DNA of 42,335 bases from an uncultured Lentisphaerales bacterium (GTDB lineage Bacteria > Verrucomicrobiota > Lentisphaeria > JABSQK01 > UBA12247). The notes beneath the pieces are model-generated. The model was not told the DNA's origin and searched no databases. It worked only from the letters and a program-made list of their open reading frames with translations. Shown piece by piece: positions 1,370 through 42,334 of the stretch (the stretch's first letter is position 1; each line of letters starts with the position of its first letter). The stretch lies in contig CALSSJ010000039.1 of the NCBI GenBank assembly GCA_943788985.1, forward strand, positions 1-42,335, read 5' to 3'. The translations under genes and the position numbers were made by a program.

Positions 1370-3878
1370 ATCGGCCAATTGTCGAAATTCGGCCCAACTA
1401 CGCCAAGCGCTGTTGGAGGGGAATCGCCAGGTGATCGGCGCTCCGACCGGCTCTGGTAAGTCGACGCAAGTCCCGAAATACCTGCTGGATGCAAAGCTGA
1501 ACGGAAAGATCCTGGTGCTGGACGCGCGGCGGCTCGCGGCACGCATGCTAGCAGGGCGGTTTCGAGCGAGCTGAATGAGCCGGTTGGGCTCACGGTCGGC
1601 TACCAGACGCGGTTTGAGTCGGAGCACACCAAGGAGACCCAATCCTGTACATGACCGAAGGCATCCTACCGCGTATGCCTGCAGAGCAATCCGCGGCTGA
1701 ATGGCGTGGGGGGCGGTGGTGCTGGACGAGTTTCACGAGCGCACGCTGGATGCGGATCTGGCGCTGGGCGCAATCATGCAGTTGCAGGCGGACCGCCCAG
1801 ACTTGCAGCTGCTGGTGATGTCAGCAACGCTGGAGACCGCGGCCGCTGGCAGAGTTTCTGAATCCGTGTCAGGTGCTGCAGGCGGAGGGCAGGCTGCCCA
1901 CGATCGAGATTGAGCATGCGCAGCCCGGTGGGGCGCGCGAGATCTGGGACCAGGCAGCGTTGGCCGTGAAGCGACTGGTGGCGACCGGTGATTCTGGGGA
2001 CGTTCTGGTATTCATGCCGGGACGCGTACGAGATTCGGCGTACAATCGAGGCGGTGCGCAAGACCAAGCTGGGCGAACGGAGTGAGCTTGTTTCCGCTGT
2101 ATGGAGATCTCGGCGCGTCGCAGCAGGACGAGGCGCTTGGCGGGTGCGAACTCCGCAAGGTGATCGTGGCCACGAACATTGCCGAGACCTCGCTGACGAT
2201 CCGCGGCGTGAGGCATGTGGTTGACGCGGGCCTGGCACGCGTGAATCGCTATGATCCGGCGCGAGGCTAAACAGCTTGAACCTGGAGCCAATCAGTCGGG
2301 CCTCGGCGATCCAACGTACGGGGCGAGCTGGGCGGGAAGGCCCGGGGCGGTGCCTGCGGCTGTACACACGACGAGAGTTTGATAATCGCCCAGCACTGGC
2401 GGATCCAGAAATTCACCGGGTCGATCTGTCGGAACTGCTGCTGTATCTGGCATCGCGGTCCCTTGAGCCGGCGGAGTTTCCGTGGCTGTCCCCACCACAG
2501 GCACATGCCCTGGCCGAAGCCAGCAGGCTACTGGGTGCAGCTAGAAGCGGTGGAGGATGAAGAACTTACGGTGACGGGCCGGGCGTTGGCAAAGCTGCCG
2601 ATGCACCCGCGGCTGGCACGCTTGCTGTACGAAGCGCGGGATCGTGAGTGCCTGCTGACGGCAAATCGAGGTCGCTGCGCTGTTGTCCGAGCGCAGGCAT
2701 CGTGACCGGCGGCGCGCAGGGCATGAAAACCTTTTTTCGGAATTCGCAAAACGCGTATGGCAAGGGGCCAGAGAGCGACTTGGTCTGCCTGCTGAAGGCA
2801 TTGCATCTGGCCCGGGAACGTGGCTTTGATCGCCATGCCTGTGATCAGCAGTCCGTGCATGCAAACACCTGTCGGCAGGTCTGGCGTAGTGCTGCGCAGT
2901 TCGCAAAGGTGTGCGAACGATTGAAGTGGCGCATCACGGATTTTGCGCCGTTCGATGAGCTAATCAAGTGCCTGGTGACGGCGTTTCCGGATCGGCTGGC
3001 AGCACGACAGGATCTGAGCGGCAGCATCTGCCGGCTGGCAGAGGAAGGGCGGGCGGATTTGTCTAAGGCGGCCTCGGTGCGCAAGGCCCCGTTGATCGTG
3101 GCCGCGGAGTACCGGGTCACCAGCAAGCCCGGGGCGCCGACGCGGGCGGAGTTGGGCGTGGTGAGTGAAGTGCGCGAGGAGTGGCTGCGTGAGTTGGACC
3201 CAGGCGCGTTCTCCGTGGTCGATCGCATGGAGTGGGGTGCGCACGCAGCAGTTGATCGAGGCGCGGCGGGTAACCCGCTGGCGCGGGCTGGTGTTGTCCA
3301 CGGCACCGGGACGGCGCTTTAATTACGAGCAGGCGGCGGCGATGCTGGCGGAACGGATCATCTCGGAGGAGTTGCAGCTACGAGGCTGGAATAAGGACTG
3401 TAAGGCCTGGCAGGAGCGGGTGCGTTGGTTGACCGAGGTGCGCCCGGAACAGGGCCTGCCGGCATACGACGATGACGATATGAGGATCGTGTATGCGGAG
3501 TTCGCAGATGGGGCTCGGCGCTACACGGATATTCGCGACAAGCCGGTGCTGCCGTACCTGAAGAATGTGCTGTCGTGGGATGATCAGCAGTTGGTGGAGA
3601 AGATGGCTCCGGCAGAGCTGCCGCTTCCGGGCGGGCGTAAGCTGCGCATTTCGTATCGGCCAGGCCGCGGGCCGACGGGCCGGGCCAAGATTCAGGAGCT
3701 GTATGGCCTGGAGGAGACGCCGCAGGTGGCTGGGGGCACGCCAGTGCAGATCGAGATTCTCGGGCCGAATATGCGGCCAGTGCAGGTGACCGAGGACCTG
3801 GCCGGGTTTTGGCGAGACTTGTACCCGGAGATCAAGCCCGCGCTGGCGCGCCGGTACCCGAAGCACGAGTGGCGGTAG
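1370..3878 (+). pseudogene. hrpB: ATP-dependent RNA helicase HrpB (DEAH/RHA) broken by multiple frameshifts, probably assembly errors; start approximate
   Basis: Motifs in order across frames: APTGSGKST (~1440), [44 protein letters not shown], and the HrpB C-terminus 'PVQVTEDLAGFW...RYPKHEW'. Confidence 0.9.
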
Positions 3879-5217
3879 GACTCTTGACTCCTGACTCTTG
3901 ACTCTTGAGCTGACTCTTTGACCGGGCTGACTCTTTGACCGTCACCACGTCAACGAGTCACTTCGTCATTCCAAGAGTCAAGAGTCAAAGAGTCAAGAGT
4001 CCCCGCGCTAGGAATCGCGCTGCGGGCGGGAAGTTCGAGCAAGGCAGAACGGCGAGGGAAAAGCTGCAAGCTTGGGAATTTGACTCTTGACTTCTGACTC
4101 TTGACTCTTGGGCTGACTCTTTGACCGGGATGACTCTTTGACCGTCACGACGTCAACGAGTCACTTCGTCATTCCAAGAGTCAAGAGTCAAAGAGTCAAG
4201 AGTCCCCCCGTTAGTAATCCCGCTGCGGGCGGGAAGTTCGAGCAAGGCAGAACGGCGAGGGAAAAGCTGCAAGCTTGGGAATTTGACTCTTGACTCCTGA
4301 CTCTTGACTCTTGAGCTGACTCTTTGACCGGGCTGACTCTTTGACCGTCACCACGTCAACGAGTCACTTCGTCATTCCAAGAGTCAAGAGTCAAAGAGTC
4401 AAGAGTCCCCCGCTAGTAATCCCGCTGCGGGCGGGAAGTTCGAGCAAGGCAGAACGGCGAGGGAAAAGCTGCAAGCTTGGGAATTTGACTCTTGACTCCT
4501 GACTCTTGACTCTTGGGCTGACTCTTTGACCGGGATGACTCTTTGACCGTCACGATGTCAACCAGTCACTTGGTCATTCCAAGAGTCAAAGAGTCAAGAG
4601 TCAAGAGTCAAGAGTCCCCCGGCCAGAAATCCCGCTGCGGGCGGGAAGTTCGAGCAAGGCAGAACGGCGAGGGAAAAGCTGCAAGCTTGGGAATTTGACT
4701 CTTGACTCCTGACTCTTGACTCTTGAGCTGACTCTTTGACCGGGCTGACTCTTTGACCGTCACCACGTCAACGAGTCACTTCGTCATTCCAAGAGTCAAG
4801 AGTCAAGAGTCAAGAGTCCCCCGCGCTAGGAATCGCGCTGCGGGCGGGAAGTTCGAGCAAGGCAGAACGGCGAGGGAAAAGCTGCAAGCTTGGGAATTTG
4901 ACTCTTAACTCCTGACTCCTGACTCTTGAGCTGACTCTTTGACCGGGCTGACTCTTTGACCGTCACCACGTCAACGAGTCACTTCGTCATTCCAAGAGTC
5001 AAGAGTCAAAGAGTCAAGAGTCCCCCGGCCAGAAATCCCGCTGCGGGCGAGAAGTTCGAGCAAGGCGGAACGGCGAGGGAAAAGCTGCAAGCTTGGGAAT
5101 TTGACTCTTGACTCCTGACTCTTGAGCTGACTCTCTGACCGGGCTGACTCTCTGACCGTCACGATGTCAACCAGTCACTTGGTCAATCCAAGAGTCGAAA
5201 GTCAAAAGTTAAGAGTC
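3879..5217. repeat. Tandem array of 7 palindromic ~123-bp units and 6 near-identical ~80-bp linkers (period ~203 bp)
   Basis: Units at 3879-4001, 4082-4204, 4285-4407, 4487-4616, 4697-4818, 4900-5022, 5103-5217. Left arms are (GACTCTT)n and right arms (AAGAGTC)n. Linker core GCTGCGGGCGGGAAGTTCGAGCAAGGCAGAACGGCGAGGGAAAAGCTGCAAGCTTGGGAATTT. Confidence 0.97.
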
Positions 5218-5331
5218 CACCAGGCGGTCTCGCATGGCAAAATGTCATCACGTCAACCACCGAGTCACCCTAGTCACCAAGTCAAAGTCACCATTACAGC
5301 GCAAGCTCTGTCTCTGCTTCTCCTACGCCGG

Positions 5332-6942
5332 TCAGCGGCCTTCATTCATGGCTAGGGCCACTGCCTCGGCTACTTTCACGCCATCGACACCGGCCGAGAG
5401 GATTCCGCCTGCATAGCCTGCGCCTTCGCCTGCGGGGAATAGCCCGCGGATACTGAGGCTCTGGAAGTCCTTGCCACGCGTCATCCGAATCGGAGACGAG
5501 GTGCGCGTCTCCACCCCCGTCATCACGGCATCCGGGCGTGCGTAGCCTTTGATTTTACGATCAAAGGCGGGCAGCGCCTCGCGCATTGCCGCGATCACAA
5601 AGTCCGGTAGGCATTCACTGAGGTCGGTGAGCTTGACTGCTGGCTTGTACGAGGGAATGACCTCGCCAAGTTTTGTCGAGGGCCGTCCCGCGAGAAAGTC
5701 GCCCACCAGCTGGGCAGGCGCATCATAATTCCCGCCGCCGGCCTGAAAGGCCAGCGTCTCAATCTTACGTTGGAGTTCAATGCCGGCCAGCGGATCGTCG
5801 CTGGGAAAGTCTTCCGGGGTGATGCCGACGACCATGCCGGCATTCGCATTGTGCTCCACGCGCGAATACTGACTCATGCCATTGGTCACCACGCGCCCCG
5901 CTTCTGAGGTCGCCGCCAGGACCGTGCCGCCGGGGCACATGCAGAAGCTGTAGACGCTTCGCGCATTCTTGCAGTGGTGCACCAGCCGATAGTCCGCCGA
6001 GCCTAAAATCTCGTGCCCGGCTTGCGGGCCATATTGGCTCTTGTCGATCATCGACTGCGGGTGCTCGATGCGCACACCGATCGAAAAGGGCTTTGGCTCA
6101 ATGAGCACGCCCTTGTTCAACAGCATCTCGAAGGTGTCGCGCGAGCTGTGCCCAACTGCCATCACGACGTAGCGGCTGGCGATCTCGCTGCCGTCGGCCA
6201 AGCGTACGCCCTGTACTTGTTCGCTCTCGACCAGCAACTCCGAGACTTGACTACCAAAGCGAATCTCGCCGCCGAGGTCGGTGATCGTGGCCCGCAAGTG
6301 CTCGACAATCTTGACCAATCGAAAGGTGCCGATGTGCGGTCGATAGACATAAAGGATCTCGGGCCGGGCACCGGCATTCACGAATTCGGTAAGTACCTTG
6401 CGCCCTTGGTGCTTTCGGTCCTTGATCTGGCTGTAGAGCTTGCCGTCTGAAAAGGTTCCGGCGCCGCCCTCGCCATACTGCACGTTCGACTCCGGATCAA
6501 ATTCCCGCTGGCGCCAGAAACCAAAGGTATCTTTGGTGCGCTGACGCACCGCCTGGCCGCGTTCCAAGACGATCGGGCGATAGCCCATCTGCGCCAGCAA
6601 CAGTGCTGCGAAATAGCCGCAAGGCCCGGCGCCCACCACGATCGGGCGCTCTTGGAGATCCGGCGGGGCCTCGGCCACCATCTGATAGGTGGTGTCCGGC
6701 GTCAGCCGAATCTTCTGGTCGCGCTTAAGCTGTTCCAGCAGCGTCTCGTCGTCGAGGCTGGTCTCGGCATCGACCACGTAGACCAGCAAGATATTGCCGC
6801 GCTTGCGGGCATCCAGGCTGCGCTTGAAGACTGCGTAGGTACCTAGTTCATCGTCGCTAATCCGCAAGCGCCTCAGTAGGGCTGCTCGCAGGTCGGCGAG
6901 GCTGTGATCCAAGGGCAGGGTGATTTCGGAGACTCTGATCAT
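5332..6942 (-). CDS. NAD(P)/FAD-dependent oxidoreductase (uncharacterised FAD-dependent dehydrogenase family)
   Basis: GAGPCG dinucleotide-binding motif, GEGGAGTFSDGKL, FCMCPGG, GVETRTSSP, GEGAGYAGGI. Start taken at ATG (MIRVSEI). Confidence 0.88.
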   Translation of the reverse strand: MIRVSEITLPLDHSLADLRAALLRRLRISDDELGTYAVFKRSLDARKRGNILLVYVVDAETSLDDETLLEQLKRDQKIRLTPDTTYQMVAEAPPDLQERPIVVGAGPCGYFAALLLAQMGYRPIVLERGQAVRQRTKDTFGFWRQREFDPESNVQYGEGGAGTFSDGKLYSQIKDRKHQGRKVLTEFVNAGARPEILYVYRPHIGTFRLVKIVEHLRATITDLGGEIRFGSQVSELLVESEQVQGVRLADGSEIASRYVVMAVGHSSRDTFEMLLNKGVLIEPKPFSIGVRIEHPQSMIDKSQYGPQAGHEILGSADYRLVHHCKNARSVYSFCMCPGGTVLAATSEAGRVVTNGMSQYSRVEHNANAGMVVGITPEDFPSDDPLAGIELQRKIETLAFQAGGGNYDAPAQLVGDFLAGRPSTKLGEVIPSYKPAVKLTDLSECLPDFVIAAMREALPAFDRKIKGYARPDAVMTGVETRTSSPIRMTRGKDFQSLSIRGLFPAGEGAGYAGGILSAGVDGVKVAEAVALAMNEGR

Positions 6943-7163
6943 GCTGATACCTTGCCTGCTCACGCCGTTCTTTCGCAGGACAATTCAGCAGGAGTCTCAT
7001 TGGGAAGACGCGGTGCTCCCGCAAGCGGGGCCTGTTGTTGTCTGTTTTTGGACTCGCGACTTTTGACTCGCGACTCGCGGGTAGGATGATGCATTGACTT
7101 TGTGACAACTAAGCAGCGGTGTCGGATAAAAACCGGCAGTCACCACGTCAAGAAGTCAAGGTG

Positions 7164-7907
7164 TCAGTCGAGGCGGGCGAAGAGGTAGCGGACCTCTACC
7201 TCGATCGTCAAGGGAATGACGTGGCGGCGATAGAGTTCGGCGACCGCCGCCGGGGCGATCTTGCAGGTGGCCGCTAGATCCGTCTCGAAGTCGACGTCGT
7301 GGCCGTAGGTCGCGGCCTTCTTTTCGATGCGGCGCAGGACGCGTTCCTCGACTTGCGGACTCCGCAACTCGTGGACGACGGCCTCGCGATCGCGGGCGCG
7401 GATCGCGGGGATGTACGCATCAGGGGCCGCGGAGAATTTTGCCTCGGCGACAAACTTCCCGTAGTGAATGCGCTTGGCTAAGGCCTGAAGAACGGCGACG
7501 TCGCAGGTGGCGCTGGAGCCATAGTTGCCGTCGTCTCCAGCCGGACAGATGGCAGGCAGGATCTCGTGGAGGTAGACCTGGTAGATCTCGTCGCAGACGG
7601 TGATGTCGTTGGGCATGATCGAGGTGGACGGCGGCAGCGGCGGGAGGCTGGACGCAGGCAGTTCGCGGGTGAATGCGTTCTCTTCGGGGCTGAGATAGCG
7701 GCGCACTCTGGCGTGCAGGTTCTCGGTCTCGGCGAGAAAGAAGTGGAGAAAGGAAGGGGGACCACTGAGAATCGCGTCCGCGATGTAGACGGGCGGATTG
7801 CGCGGAAACTGGGCGCGCTCGATCAGGGCAAAGATGATGGTCTCTTCCAGGCGAATCAGCCGCTCACGAATGCTGCTGAGTTGAGGTGGCGTTTGGGCTG
7901 TCCACAT
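7164..7907 (-). CDS. Chorismate mutase, yeast/plant (ARO7-like) type
   Basis: 'L.SIR..LIRLEETIIFALIERAQF..N..VY', 'HARVRRY.SPEE.AF', 'DDGNYGSSATCD...LQAL..RIHYGKFVAEAKF', 'VIPLT..VEV.YL..RL' match eukaryotic-type chorismate mutase; 247 aa. Confidence 0.9.
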   Translation of the reverse strand: MWTAQTPPQLSSIRERLIRLEETIIFALIERAQFPRNPPVYIADAILSGPPSFLHFFLAETENLHARVRRYLSPEENAFTRELPASSLPPLPPSTSIMPNDITVCDEIYQVYLHEILPAICPAGDDGNYGSSATCDVAVLQALAKRIHYGKFVAEAKFSAAPDAYIPAIRARDREAVVHELRSPQVEERVLRRIEKKAATYGHDVDFETDLAATCKIAPAAVAELYRRHVIPLTIEVEVRYLFARLD

Positions 7908-18360: not shown

Positions 18361-18401
18361 GTACGACGTGTCTCCGTGCACGTCGAGTAATTGGCGACGG
18401 G
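18361..18401 (+). repeat. 41-bp direct repeat, copy 1 (REP-like hairpin CGACGTG..CACGTCG)
   Basis: GTACGACGTGTCTCCGTGCACGTCGAGTAATTGGCGACGGG is identical to 19333-19373. Confidence 0.9.
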
Positions 18402-18468
18402 CACGGATGCTCAGCTGCTCAGCTCGGGCGCTCATTGTAAACCCGATAAGGCGCCGTATTTTTATCTT

Positions 18469-19332: not shown

Positions 19333-19392
19333 GTACGACGTGTCTCCGTGCACGTCGAGTAATTGGCGACGGGTACGGAGACCCGGTCGTAC
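19333..19392. repeat. 41-bp direct repeat, copy 2, extended into an inverted REP pair (GTACGAC...GTCGTAC)
   Basis: The second half CGACGGGTACGGAGACCCGGTCGTAC is an imperfect reverse complement of the first half. Confidence 0.85.
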
Positions 19393-19429
19393 GAGCGACT
19401 GTCCAGCTTCGCGAAACTGAGAGAAAAAG

Positions 19430-19475
19430 ATCGACTCGAGTCGATTGCTATCGATGTGAGTCGACTCGAGTCGAT
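19430..19475. repeat. Two copies of the palindrome (A)TCGACTCGAGTCGA(T)
   Basis: 19430-19445 (16 bp perfect) and 19461-19474 (14 bp); third copy at 38286-38301. Confidence 0.8.
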
Positions 19476-19531
19476 TTTTTTCTGGCCCTTTTTGCCCGGC
19501 TTGGATGGGCCAAGATACCTTGGCTACCAGC

Positions 19532-33679: not shown

Positions 33680-33754
33680 TGATCGACTGTGGGACTGGCG
33701 GCGCAGGCTTCTGGCACCCCGTCCGGTCCGGGGCGCAGGAAACGGGGAAGAGTA

Positions 33755-34158
33755 CCGGTGGTTCCACCACCGGCTACGTTCTTGGTCCCCTCCGGGGAAC
33801 GAGAGCTTCATAGATCTTGATCCGGCGGAAATTCCCGCGGTACCAATCTTCCTCGTCTTCGTCCTCGAAGGGGACAGTTTTCGATGGGTACACGATTCCC
33901 TCGGGGGGACCAGGTGGACGATAGGTGTGGACGATTCCAAGTTACCACGCCGTCAACCTCTCTCGTCGAACTCTCTCCTCAACCCAATCTGATACGAGGT
34001 GTGTAGGATGAGGACGATCGGTACCGTTTCCATTTTTCGGGCCGTGCGGATGATCCTCATCCTCGCTCAGCCGGAGTGCCCGGATCAAGATCTATGAGCT
34101 TGACCTTTGCCGACATCCCGGAGGGATGAACGATCGTAGCCGGTGGTAAAAGCACCGG
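33755..34158. mobile_element. Nested inverted-repeat structure: REP-like outer pair and 18-bp IR inner MITE-like element
   Basis: Inner perfect IR TCATAGATCTTGATCCGG (33808-33825) / CCGGATCAAGATCTATGA (34080-34097); outer imperfect IR 33755-33798 / 34116-34158. Confidence 0.6.
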
Positions 34159-34301
34159 ACTTGACCGCCACGCCGTACGCCCTGGAAGGGCGCCGTGGCA
34201 TTGACCCATCGCAGACCCAAATGCAACCCCTGCGGTGATTACGCGGCACCGCAGTTATTCAGTTGGTTTCGACGGGAGAAGGAAGAAAAACGGTTACTGG
34301 G

Positions 34302-38159: not shown

Positions 38160-38285
38160 GCCTGCCCTCGCGTTGAAGTAGAGCGGCCTCGATGAAGGTG
38201 GCAGGCGAGAGTCTGCTGGGCAAATCGCGGGATTGAGCGCCGCAGGCATTCACGGCTATGCGGTTTTGGGGCGGCCAAGCCAAGG

Positions 38286-38301
38286 ATCGACTCGAGTCGA
38301 T
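38286..38301. repeat. Palindrome ATCGACTCGAGTCGAT (third copy)
   Basis: Perfect 16-bp palindrome followed by TTTT, between convergent genes. Confidence 0.75.
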
Positions 38302-38332
38302 TTTTCGGTCTCTCTCGAATGTGGCCTTCCCT

Positions 38333-41125: not shown

Positions 41126-41201
41126 TGGCGACCCCAACGGGGTTCGAACCCGTGTTGCCGGGATGAAAACCCGGTGTCCTAGGCCTCTAGACGATGGGGT
41201 C
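41126..41201 (-). tRNA. tRNA-Glu (anticodon TTC)
   Basis: Reverse complement GACCCCATCGTCTAGAGGCCTAGGACACCGGGTTTTCATCCCGGCAACACGGGTTCGAACCCCGTTGGGGTCGCCA: 76 nt, acceptor stem, GTTCGAA T-loop, encoded CCA. Confidence 0.96.
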
Positions 41202-42152: not shown

Positions 42153-42334
42153 AACGGACTGGAAGTCCGTTCTACGAACCGCTGACTCTTGACCCTTGAC
42201 TCCTGACTCTTGGATTGACGAAGTGACAGTTTGACGCCGTGACGGTCACTTCGTCATCTTGGTCAAAGAGTCAGCCCAAGAGTCAAGCGTCGAAAGTCAA
42301 GAGTCAAGACCAGGCCAAGGCACCTCGCCTCTAC
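42153..42334 (-). repeat. Composite repeat cluster: two GTAG-type REP hairpins flanking a solo inverted copy (42184-42305) of the array unit
   Basis: Minus strand GTAGAACGGACTTCCAGTCCGTT (42153-42175) and GTAGAGGCGAGGTGCCTTGGCCT (42312-42334). 42184-42305 aligns with the reverse complement of 3879-4001. Confidence 0.85.

Follow-up and report, generated by a model that had tools for sequence, protein, structure and literature searches.

The window analysed here is a 42,335-nt stretch of DNA from an uncultured Lentisphaerales bacterium that makes up the entire contig C39 of its genome assembly (G000; 4.58 Mb in 48 contigs, 83.6% complete), and it carries, between two convergent protein genes, a tandem array of long imperfect palindromes. 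What kind of element this array is, and how it came to be amplified, is the question that the locus raises. Short-period inverted repeat arrays are widespread and unexplained in bacterial genomes, and a first-pass annotation of the window, made from the sequence alone, had proposed either a BIME/REPIN-like amplified nonautonomous element or a multimeric structured RNA processed into ∼200-nt monomers.

Anatomy of the array

The array consists of seven units with successive periods of 203, 203, 202, 210, 203, and 203 nt, each bearing a long imperfect hairpin, much as the first-pass annotation had described it (seven units, period 202 to 210); the hairpins measure 115 to 130 nt and the linkers 79 to 81 nt (Table 1). 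TRF reports a period of 203 with 6.6 copies and a score of 2286. In unit 1 the left arm holds eight GAC triplets at offsets 0, 7, 14, 21, 33, 41, 50, and 58, and the right arm holds eight GTC triplets at offsets 62 to 120, with a spacing that nearly mirrors that of the left arm. On its left side the hairpin abuts an AATT run and on its right side a C-run, and the array ends 115 nt from the stop codon of the convergent FAD-dependent protein gene.

TABLE 1 Features of the array and its surroundings, in window coordinates
Feature	Position	Strand	Remarks
hrpB 3' part (HrpB_C)	3165..3878	+	left flanking gene
Whole array, hairpin-(linker-hairpin)x6	3879..5217	.	first base directly 3' of hrpB stop codon
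Hairpin 1	3879..4001	+	123 nt; same sequence as hairpin 3
Linker 1	4002..4081	+	80 nt
Hairpin 2	4082..4204	+	123 nt
Linker 2	4205..4284	+	80 nt
Hairpin 3	4285..4407	+	123 nt; fold z ∼ -8 to -10
Linker 3	4408..4486	+	79 nt; folds no better than chance; homologue at G000:C11:21372-21453
Hairpin 4	4487..4616	+	130 nt; one additional heptamer
Linker 4	4617..4696	+	80 nt
Hairpin 5	4697..4818	+	122 nt
Linker 5	4819..4899	+	81 nt
Hairpin 6	4900..5022	+	123 nt
Linker 6	5023..5102	+	80 nt; two additional substitutions
Hairpin 7	5103..5217	+	115 nt; most divergent, 83-85% identical to other array hairpins
Eroded right arm	5245..5290	+	just 3' of array; resembles 8-mer (C10-type) hairpin family
FAD-dependent protein gene	5332..6963	-	right flanking gene, convergent with hrpB
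Solo eroded hairpin	7051..7165	.	third (GACTCGC-type) family
Solo hairpin	42184..42305	-	array's own family, reverse orientation

The seven hairpins represent 6 distinct sequences with pairwise identities of 83 to 100%, and the six linkers, all distinct, are 91 to 99% identical. Their variation is concentrated in the first ∼17 nt, as had been seen at first reading, with the two substitutions of linker 6 in addition. Variants are distributed over the seven units as a mosaic, hairpin 2 sharing variants with hairpin 4 and hairpin 4 with hairpin 7, while linker 1 resembles linker 5 and linker 4 resembles linker 6, a pattern expected of unequal exchange or conversion. The longest stop-free frame in the array is 67 codons, in agreement with the earlier view that it holds no convincing ORF. 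A CRISPR array, also set aside in the first-pass annotation, is ruled out by linkers that are near identical rather than unique spacers and by a repeat of ∼123 nt rather than ∼30 bp. A scan of the array for promoters and terminators returned no consensus sigma-70 promoter and no U-tract terminator. Comparison with Rfam at gathering thresholds, which the first-pass annotation had proposed, gave no family for the array; the window's single Rfam match is a minus-strand tRNA gene (41129-41201).

The window also holds repeats of other kinds. A short repeated palindrome that ends in A/T tails and resembles a terminator or a REP occurs at 19419-19483 and 38282-38312 and at about ten more places in the genome. 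A 47-nt direct repeat is found at 18361-18407 and 19333-19379, a distance of 972 nt, and once more on contig C30. A dispersed repeat of ∼290 nt (33751-34160), MITE-like with terminal inverted repeats at 33808-33825 and 34080-34097, is nested in a second repeat family of ∼45 nt and has copies on C19, C5, C12, C11, C33, C38, and C28.

Copy number and assembly

Twenty of the 24 public sequencing runs listed contain the stretch, in whole or in part. In four runs that we examined contig breaks fall at the array, as would be expected, and pieces specific to particular units were found; such contigs came from 3 independent DNA runs. For 12 of the 15 in-array DNA pieces among the pieces listed (there are 69 more; records 20, 27, and 29 were excluded as gapped or from other loci), depth relative to flank depth tracks the copy number that 31-mers have in the assembly (r = 0.86, slope 0.74; 3 DNA runs), and a shared linker piece in run X3 has a depth ratio of 4.9 against the 4.65 expected. 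Contig depth is a rough measure of copy number, and these values support ∼5 to 7 copies rather than exactly seven. The array is real: assembly expansion, which the first-pass annotation had named as one case that would undo its reading, was not borne out by contig depth in the DNA runs and is disfavored by the six different hairpin sequences, the six different linkers, the unit-specific contigs, and the matching depth ratios.

All four runs are one base short at position 3234 relative to the assembly, so the assembly contains indel errors. One-base length differences between units, which lie in C-runs, may be errors of this kind, as may the frameshifts in two genes described below, the TIGR04258 copy on C29 and the integrase on C20. 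The hrpB gene (2276-3878) is apparently split over several frames, and its break at 3234 is likely an assembly error. The array is apparently fixed at both ends in the 4 runs, and no empty-site joint was found in contigs of 8 runs.

Distribution of the hairpin family

The array unit is not unique to this locus but is one of ∼35 or more hairpins at ∼22 intergenic loci. Searching the genome with unit and linker separately, as had been suggested, placed the unit at 22 merged positions and the 80-nt linker at one site beyond the array, on C11 (21372-21453). A strict census returned 35 GAC-to-GTC hairpin rows in G000 and 0 in a shuffled genome, 14 of the array type, 20 of an 8-mer type, and 1 of a third type; one row is duplicated and hairpin 2 of the array was missed. 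All 22 of the hairpin loci checked fall outside ORFs of at least 150 amino acids.

Beyond this genome, the repeat word of the array was found in G000 alone among 151 genomes searched, and the linker pattern had 0 matches in viral contigs. When the locus was searched as DNA in 60 relatives, with none of the same family among them, the matches were to the flanking genes alone, and a hairpin 3' of hrpB was present at 0 of 9 hrpB loci from distant relatives, which may not be syntenic.

TIGR04258 genes inside sister arrays

The window holds no TIGR04258 gene, but the first-pass suggestion that a four-helix-bundle gene might stand beside other copies proved fruitful, and two such genes lie inside sister arrays in the same genome. 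The array at C38:34293-36099 has a period of 171 and its own 50-nt linker, and it encloses a 240-amino-acid ORF that scores 59.8 bits against TIGR04258 (cutoff 40) and also matches the PF01396 zinc ribbon; hairpin 1 of the window is 83 to 87% identical to five hairpins of this array. The array at C10:125223-127495, of the 8-mer type with a period of ∼178 and 63% identity to hairpin 1, encloses a 239-amino-acid ORF that is 77% identical to the C38 ORF, passes the TIGR04258 cutoff, and carries the zinc ribbon as well. A third TIGR04258 copy on C29 is frameshifted and has arms of the third hairpin type, and remnants are present on C45 and C31.

At C38 the gene-side arms are shortened and a stretch of ∼23 bp from the hairpin center is repeated on both sides of the gene, which appears to sit in a loop. 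Four additional runs contain this locus, and its gene-hairpin junctions are bridged by contigs on the left in runs X7, X12, and X18 and on the right in X9.

Several other genes and repeats of G000 were noted. Reverse transcriptase matches occur on C31 and C21, none linked to the TIGR04258 genes as a DGR reverse transcriptase, and the one near the C31 hairpin looks by inspection like a group II-type maturase and was judged unrelated. An array with TGAC runs at G000:C10:314000-326600 (L006), with ∼38 copies of a 336-bp unit, was rejected as a family member; it reads as a protein-coding repeat, likely of a giant adhesin. A TIGR02436 four-helix-bundle gene (G000:C15:83588-83905) has a hairpin of ∼110 nt on each side, built on a different word and in direct repeat. 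There are also three GxxExxY (TIGR04256) genes (L258, at G000:C21:53428-53769, L259, and L260), the C21 copy being flanked by short tandem repeats of another word.

Homologous loci in other bacteria

We fetched 160 loci of TIGR04258 homologues, 134 of which have 200 nt on both sides of the gene, and scored a hairpin as a GAC-run followed by a GTC-run within 200 nt, a motif test that replaced a noisy per-flank self-alignment score. Close homologues (at least 60% identical; n = 28) come from PVC bacteria, mostly Lentisphaerota, Kiritimatiellota, and Verrucomicrobiota where named. A hairpin lies upstream in 23 of the 28 close and 66 of the 106 distant homologues, downstream in 17/28 and 12/106, and on both sides in 15/28 and 8/106, whereas the control windows gave 4 hits in 393 and the genome windows 24 in 2312; some loci are near-duplicates, so the counts overstate independence. 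A direct repeat from flank to flank was found in 23 of 29 close homologues, and the typical layout among close homologues is hairpin-gene-hairpin with the hairpins in direct repeat. Gene neighbors vary between homologue loci.

When 39 proteins are placed in a tree, the prevailing GAC spacing (7, 8, 9, or 10) groups by gene lineage, with several forks weak; the 8-mer group mixes phyla, and the genes of C38 and C10 come out as sisters (99/96). Among 30 TIGR04258 loci of the same order or class (one from G000), 15 have such a hairpin within ∼3 kb and 0 have an array of whole hairpins. Arrays of whole hairpins beside the gene were found at two of the 160 fetched loci (L053 and L124), of which L124 is apparently the C10 locus of the same organism. 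The gene-plus-hairpin element probably spreads without a classical transposase.

Circularly permuted monomers

The single recurrence of the linker lies within a segment of ∼206 nt at C11:21306-21511 that is 86.7% identical to the array over 211 columns and in which the order is right arm, linker, left arm, that is, one period of the array, circularly permuted. Since the linker is present at this unlinked locus in a permuted copy, it is part of the element and not duplicated local DNA, and a one-period permuted copy with the same linker indicates that hairpin and linker moved together as one monomer. Another permuted copy, with a short linker, is found 4.6 kb from the first, and a sulfatase gene and a rhamnosidase gene are located between them. 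Permuted pieces of ∼150 nt from the C10-type monomer, including its linker, occur on C32 and C41. Alternatively, the permuted copies could be eroded remnants of older arrays.

Other arrangements were seen around such copies. On C41 an AAA_14/DUF4143 gene stands between two C10-type hairpin units (L004:3183-4556), and at G000:C31:46000-46300 a similar-looking gene end is followed by a zinc ribbon remnant and then a hairpin. One copy of the ∼290-nt MITE-like repeat directly adjoins a permuted monomer on C11.

Folding and RNA libraries

An array unit folds at z of -8.0 to -10.1, whether as DNA or RNA, with 0 of 200 dinucleotide shuffles as good, and the linker folds no better than chance (z of -0.5 to -2.0). 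Across 13 hairpins, 1 of 41 predicted pairs has changed on both sides, and the covariation term is unfavorable at +1.27; the GAC and GTC triplets are invariant columns, and the bases between them vary. The arms remain complementary between hairpin families, which is equally well explained by inverted binding sites or by arm-to-arm copying. In contigs from RNA libraries, a weak test in which strand and ends are not visible and DNA carryover is possible, neither the array nor the C38 gene is enriched: the single array piece tested has 1.2x flank depth against 3.9 expected from copy number, and depth over the C38 locus is flat in run X18. The proposal of a multimeric structured RNA cut to ∼200-nt monomers thus fared poorly, with so few two-sided pairs, an unstructured linker, and no enrichment in RNA contigs, and the array is probably not a functional RNA.

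Predicted structure of the partner protein

An AlphaFold2 model of the partner protein, built from 109 sequences, has a pLDDT of 90.8. Its top VIA-align match is Xcc0516 (Z 14.7, rmsd 1.5, 112 aligned), followed by BT_0352 (Z 12.0) and Avd (Z 11.7 and 10.6), scores to be read with the knowledge that helical bundles match one another well by chance. Fold comparison places the S23-family proteins 2gsc and 2rld at the top, and a sequence profile search also ranks Xcc0516 (2gsc) first, at an E value of 0.013. Foldseek against the PDB returned nothing at E ≤ 0.001, its best match again being 2gsc (0.035). No HUH, tyrosine recombinase, or DDE match was found in comparisons with transposases and recombinases, in which residues beyond ∼185 are barely covered. 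Invariant polar residues include Q48, R54, N59, E62, S84, and E87. The modeled partner is an Avd-fold four-helix bundle with a zinc ribbon, and by this model it resembles no known transposase or recombinase.

Relation to known systems

Both sister-array genes pass the cutoff of NCBIfam TIGR04258 (four helix bundle suffix domain protein), and we found no paper that ties this gene family to such repeats. To our knowledge, DGRs are the only setting in which a function has been assigned to four-helix-bundle proteins of the IVS/Avd-like kind. The TIGR04258 partner shares its predicted fold with the Avd of DGRs, but here no DGR reverse transcriptase is linked to it, the matches on C31 (group II-like) and C21 lying elsewhere.

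The closest likeness in layout is to the tandem REPIN clusters of Pseudomonas fluorescens SBW25, which are intergenic hairpins of ∼100 nt, found singly as well as in tandem arrays whose spacer is constant, and among which every REPIN type has a cluster next to the RAYT that belongs to it (PMC3116915). The hairpins of G000 are likewise of several types by sequence, and each type has a cluster next to the gene that partners it. They differ from the REPINs so described in that the partner is, by its model, an Avd-fold four-helix bundle with a zinc ribbon rather than an HUH transposase, that the arms are runs of 7- to 8-bp GAC units without GTAG or CGTC tails, and that there are only tens of copies, with a linker that accompanies the hairpin, permuted, at unlinked loci. 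The array is thus REPIN-cluster-like, with a nontransposase partner, and how it moves is inferred.

A second comparison is with the ORF-bearing intervening sequences (IVS) of 23S rRNA, exemplified by the Coxiella S23p, in which a four-helix-bundle ORF is enclosed by complementary sequences (PMC4990558); the S23-family fold matches of the partner add to the likeness. In contrast to these IVS, the elements of G000 are not in rRNA, the array lying between two protein genes; their gene is flanked on both sides by a hairpin, complete or partial, and encodes the TIGR04258 suffix and a zinc ribbon; and gene-less units have been amplified to arrays. Arrays in Geobacter metallireducens also consist of four to five tandem 7- to 8-bp units in inverted pairs, with tens of dispersed copies and function given as unknown, and were interpreted as regulator sites without a link to a gene family in the text seen (PMC2700814). 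Those of G000 have longer arms, are multimerized, and are tied to TIGR04258 genes.

Origin of the array and alternative explanations

Taken together, these observations make it very likely that the array is an amplified, gene-less form of the TIGR04258 gene-plus-hairpin element, an offshoot of it because its hairpins are near-copies of those around the C38 gene. To the full account, a gene-less nonautonomous offshoot that has grown and spread by recombination between repeats, we assign a probability of roughly two in three. Of the first-pass reading as a BIME/REPIN-like element, the amplified and nonautonomous parts are supported, and a RAYT-type element is improbable, with no Y1_Tnp gene found in the 83.6%-complete genome and no GTAG or CGTC tail.

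Among other explanations, it seems unlikely that the repeats are immobile, domesticated DNA sites, in which the GAC/GTC registers are bound by a protein, either TIGR04258 or a nucleoid protein of the host, or serve as a two-way terminator for the convergent gene pair, and the tandem growth is neutral, by slippage or unequal crossover. The invariance of the triplets amid variable bases would suit this reading, as would the intergenic position of 22/22 loci, the apparent fixation of the array at both ends in 4 runs, and the reading of paired hepta- and octanucleotide arrays in Geobacter as regulator sites (PMC2700814). Domesticated sites would sit less easily with a repeat word confined to G000 among 151 genomes, with the same linker in permuted form at unlinked loci, and with homologue loci that differ in their gene neighbors, and with an array that lacks a U-tract terminator or sigma-70 promoter in our scan. 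We consider it quite improbable that the array encodes a multimeric structured RNA, transcribed on its own or as hrpB read-through and then cleaved, RNase III being one candidate, to functional monomers of ∼200 nt that the Avd-like protein perhaps binds. The partner fold is that of Avd, which is present in a DGR ribonucleoprotein entry (8ub7_B), the predicted stems are highly stable, and RNase III cuts IVS elements with related ORFs (PMC4990558); against this stand the near absence of two-sided pair changes, a linker that is unstructured and differs between arrays, the lack of an Rfam match, and the flat depths in RNA-library contigs, which may hold DNA carryover.

Mobilization by a RAYT (an HUH Y1 transposase) that is absent from the assembly is more improbable still. 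Its appeal lies in a layout like that of REPIN clusters in tandem, where every partner gene has a single repeat type next to it (PMC3116915), and in the incompleteness of the genome, but the search for a cognate RAYT that the first-pass annotation had advised found no PF01797 (Y1_Tnp) match in G000 contigs, with a control match in 6 of 14 genomes, and the genes found inside the arrays are TIGR04258 genes. The foot of a REP carries a tetranucleotide tail of the GTAG or CGTC type (PMC3733652), and the hairpin foot here has neither. The slimmest chance falls to an integron-like array of empty cassettes, with the hairpin as attC, or to assembly expansion. An integron integrase match on C20, split across two frames, and the presence of other genes between hairpin copies on C11 and C41 would fit the former, and the indel errors of the assembly the latter. 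Integron attC sites have RYYYAAC and GTTRRRY cores at the hairpin ends, however, and by inspection the hairpin ends here lack RYYYAAC...GTTRRRY cores; expansion is countered by the distinct units, unit-specific contigs, and depth ratios given above.

For the preferred account of a gene-less offshoot, we propose that the ancestral unit was a hairpin-gene-hairpin module with its hairpins in direct repeat, and that the Avd-fold protein, perhaps oligomeric, would bind the GAC/GTC registers, each gene lineage having its own repeat word. Crossing-over between the direct-repeat hairpins would delete the gene or a monomer, and the same process would let hairpin-plus-linker monomers duplicate in tandem and homogenize. 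A released monomer, likely circular, could reenter elsewhere by a crossover within an arm or the loop, which would yield permuted copies. The strand exchange itself may be due to host recombination or to an unrecognized activity of the TIGR04258 protein, and any terminator-like or RNase III-substrate effect on the read-through RNA of the convergent genes would be a by-product.

Implications for TIGR04258 elements

It is possible, if doubtful, that the TIGR04258 protein is itself a sequence-specific mobilizer that binds the GAC/GTC registers and promotes the excision of monomer circles, which then reintegrate at a register. If true, this would explain the tandem arrays, the one-period permuted copies on C11, and perhaps a carriage of genes between copies (the sulfatase and rhamnosidase on C11 and the AAA/DUF4143 gene on C41), and would amount to a REPIN/RAYT analogue on an Avd fold with new chemistry. 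"Tandem inverse repeats" with four-helix-bundle genes have reportedly been proposed as a mobile family; if so, the class is already described. If the protein does mobilize the repeats, the elements would form a mobile-element class without a recognized transposase, for which G000 offers a natural experiment, with two 77%-identical sister proteins in arrays with different words, a gene-less array, and permuted monomers in one genome.
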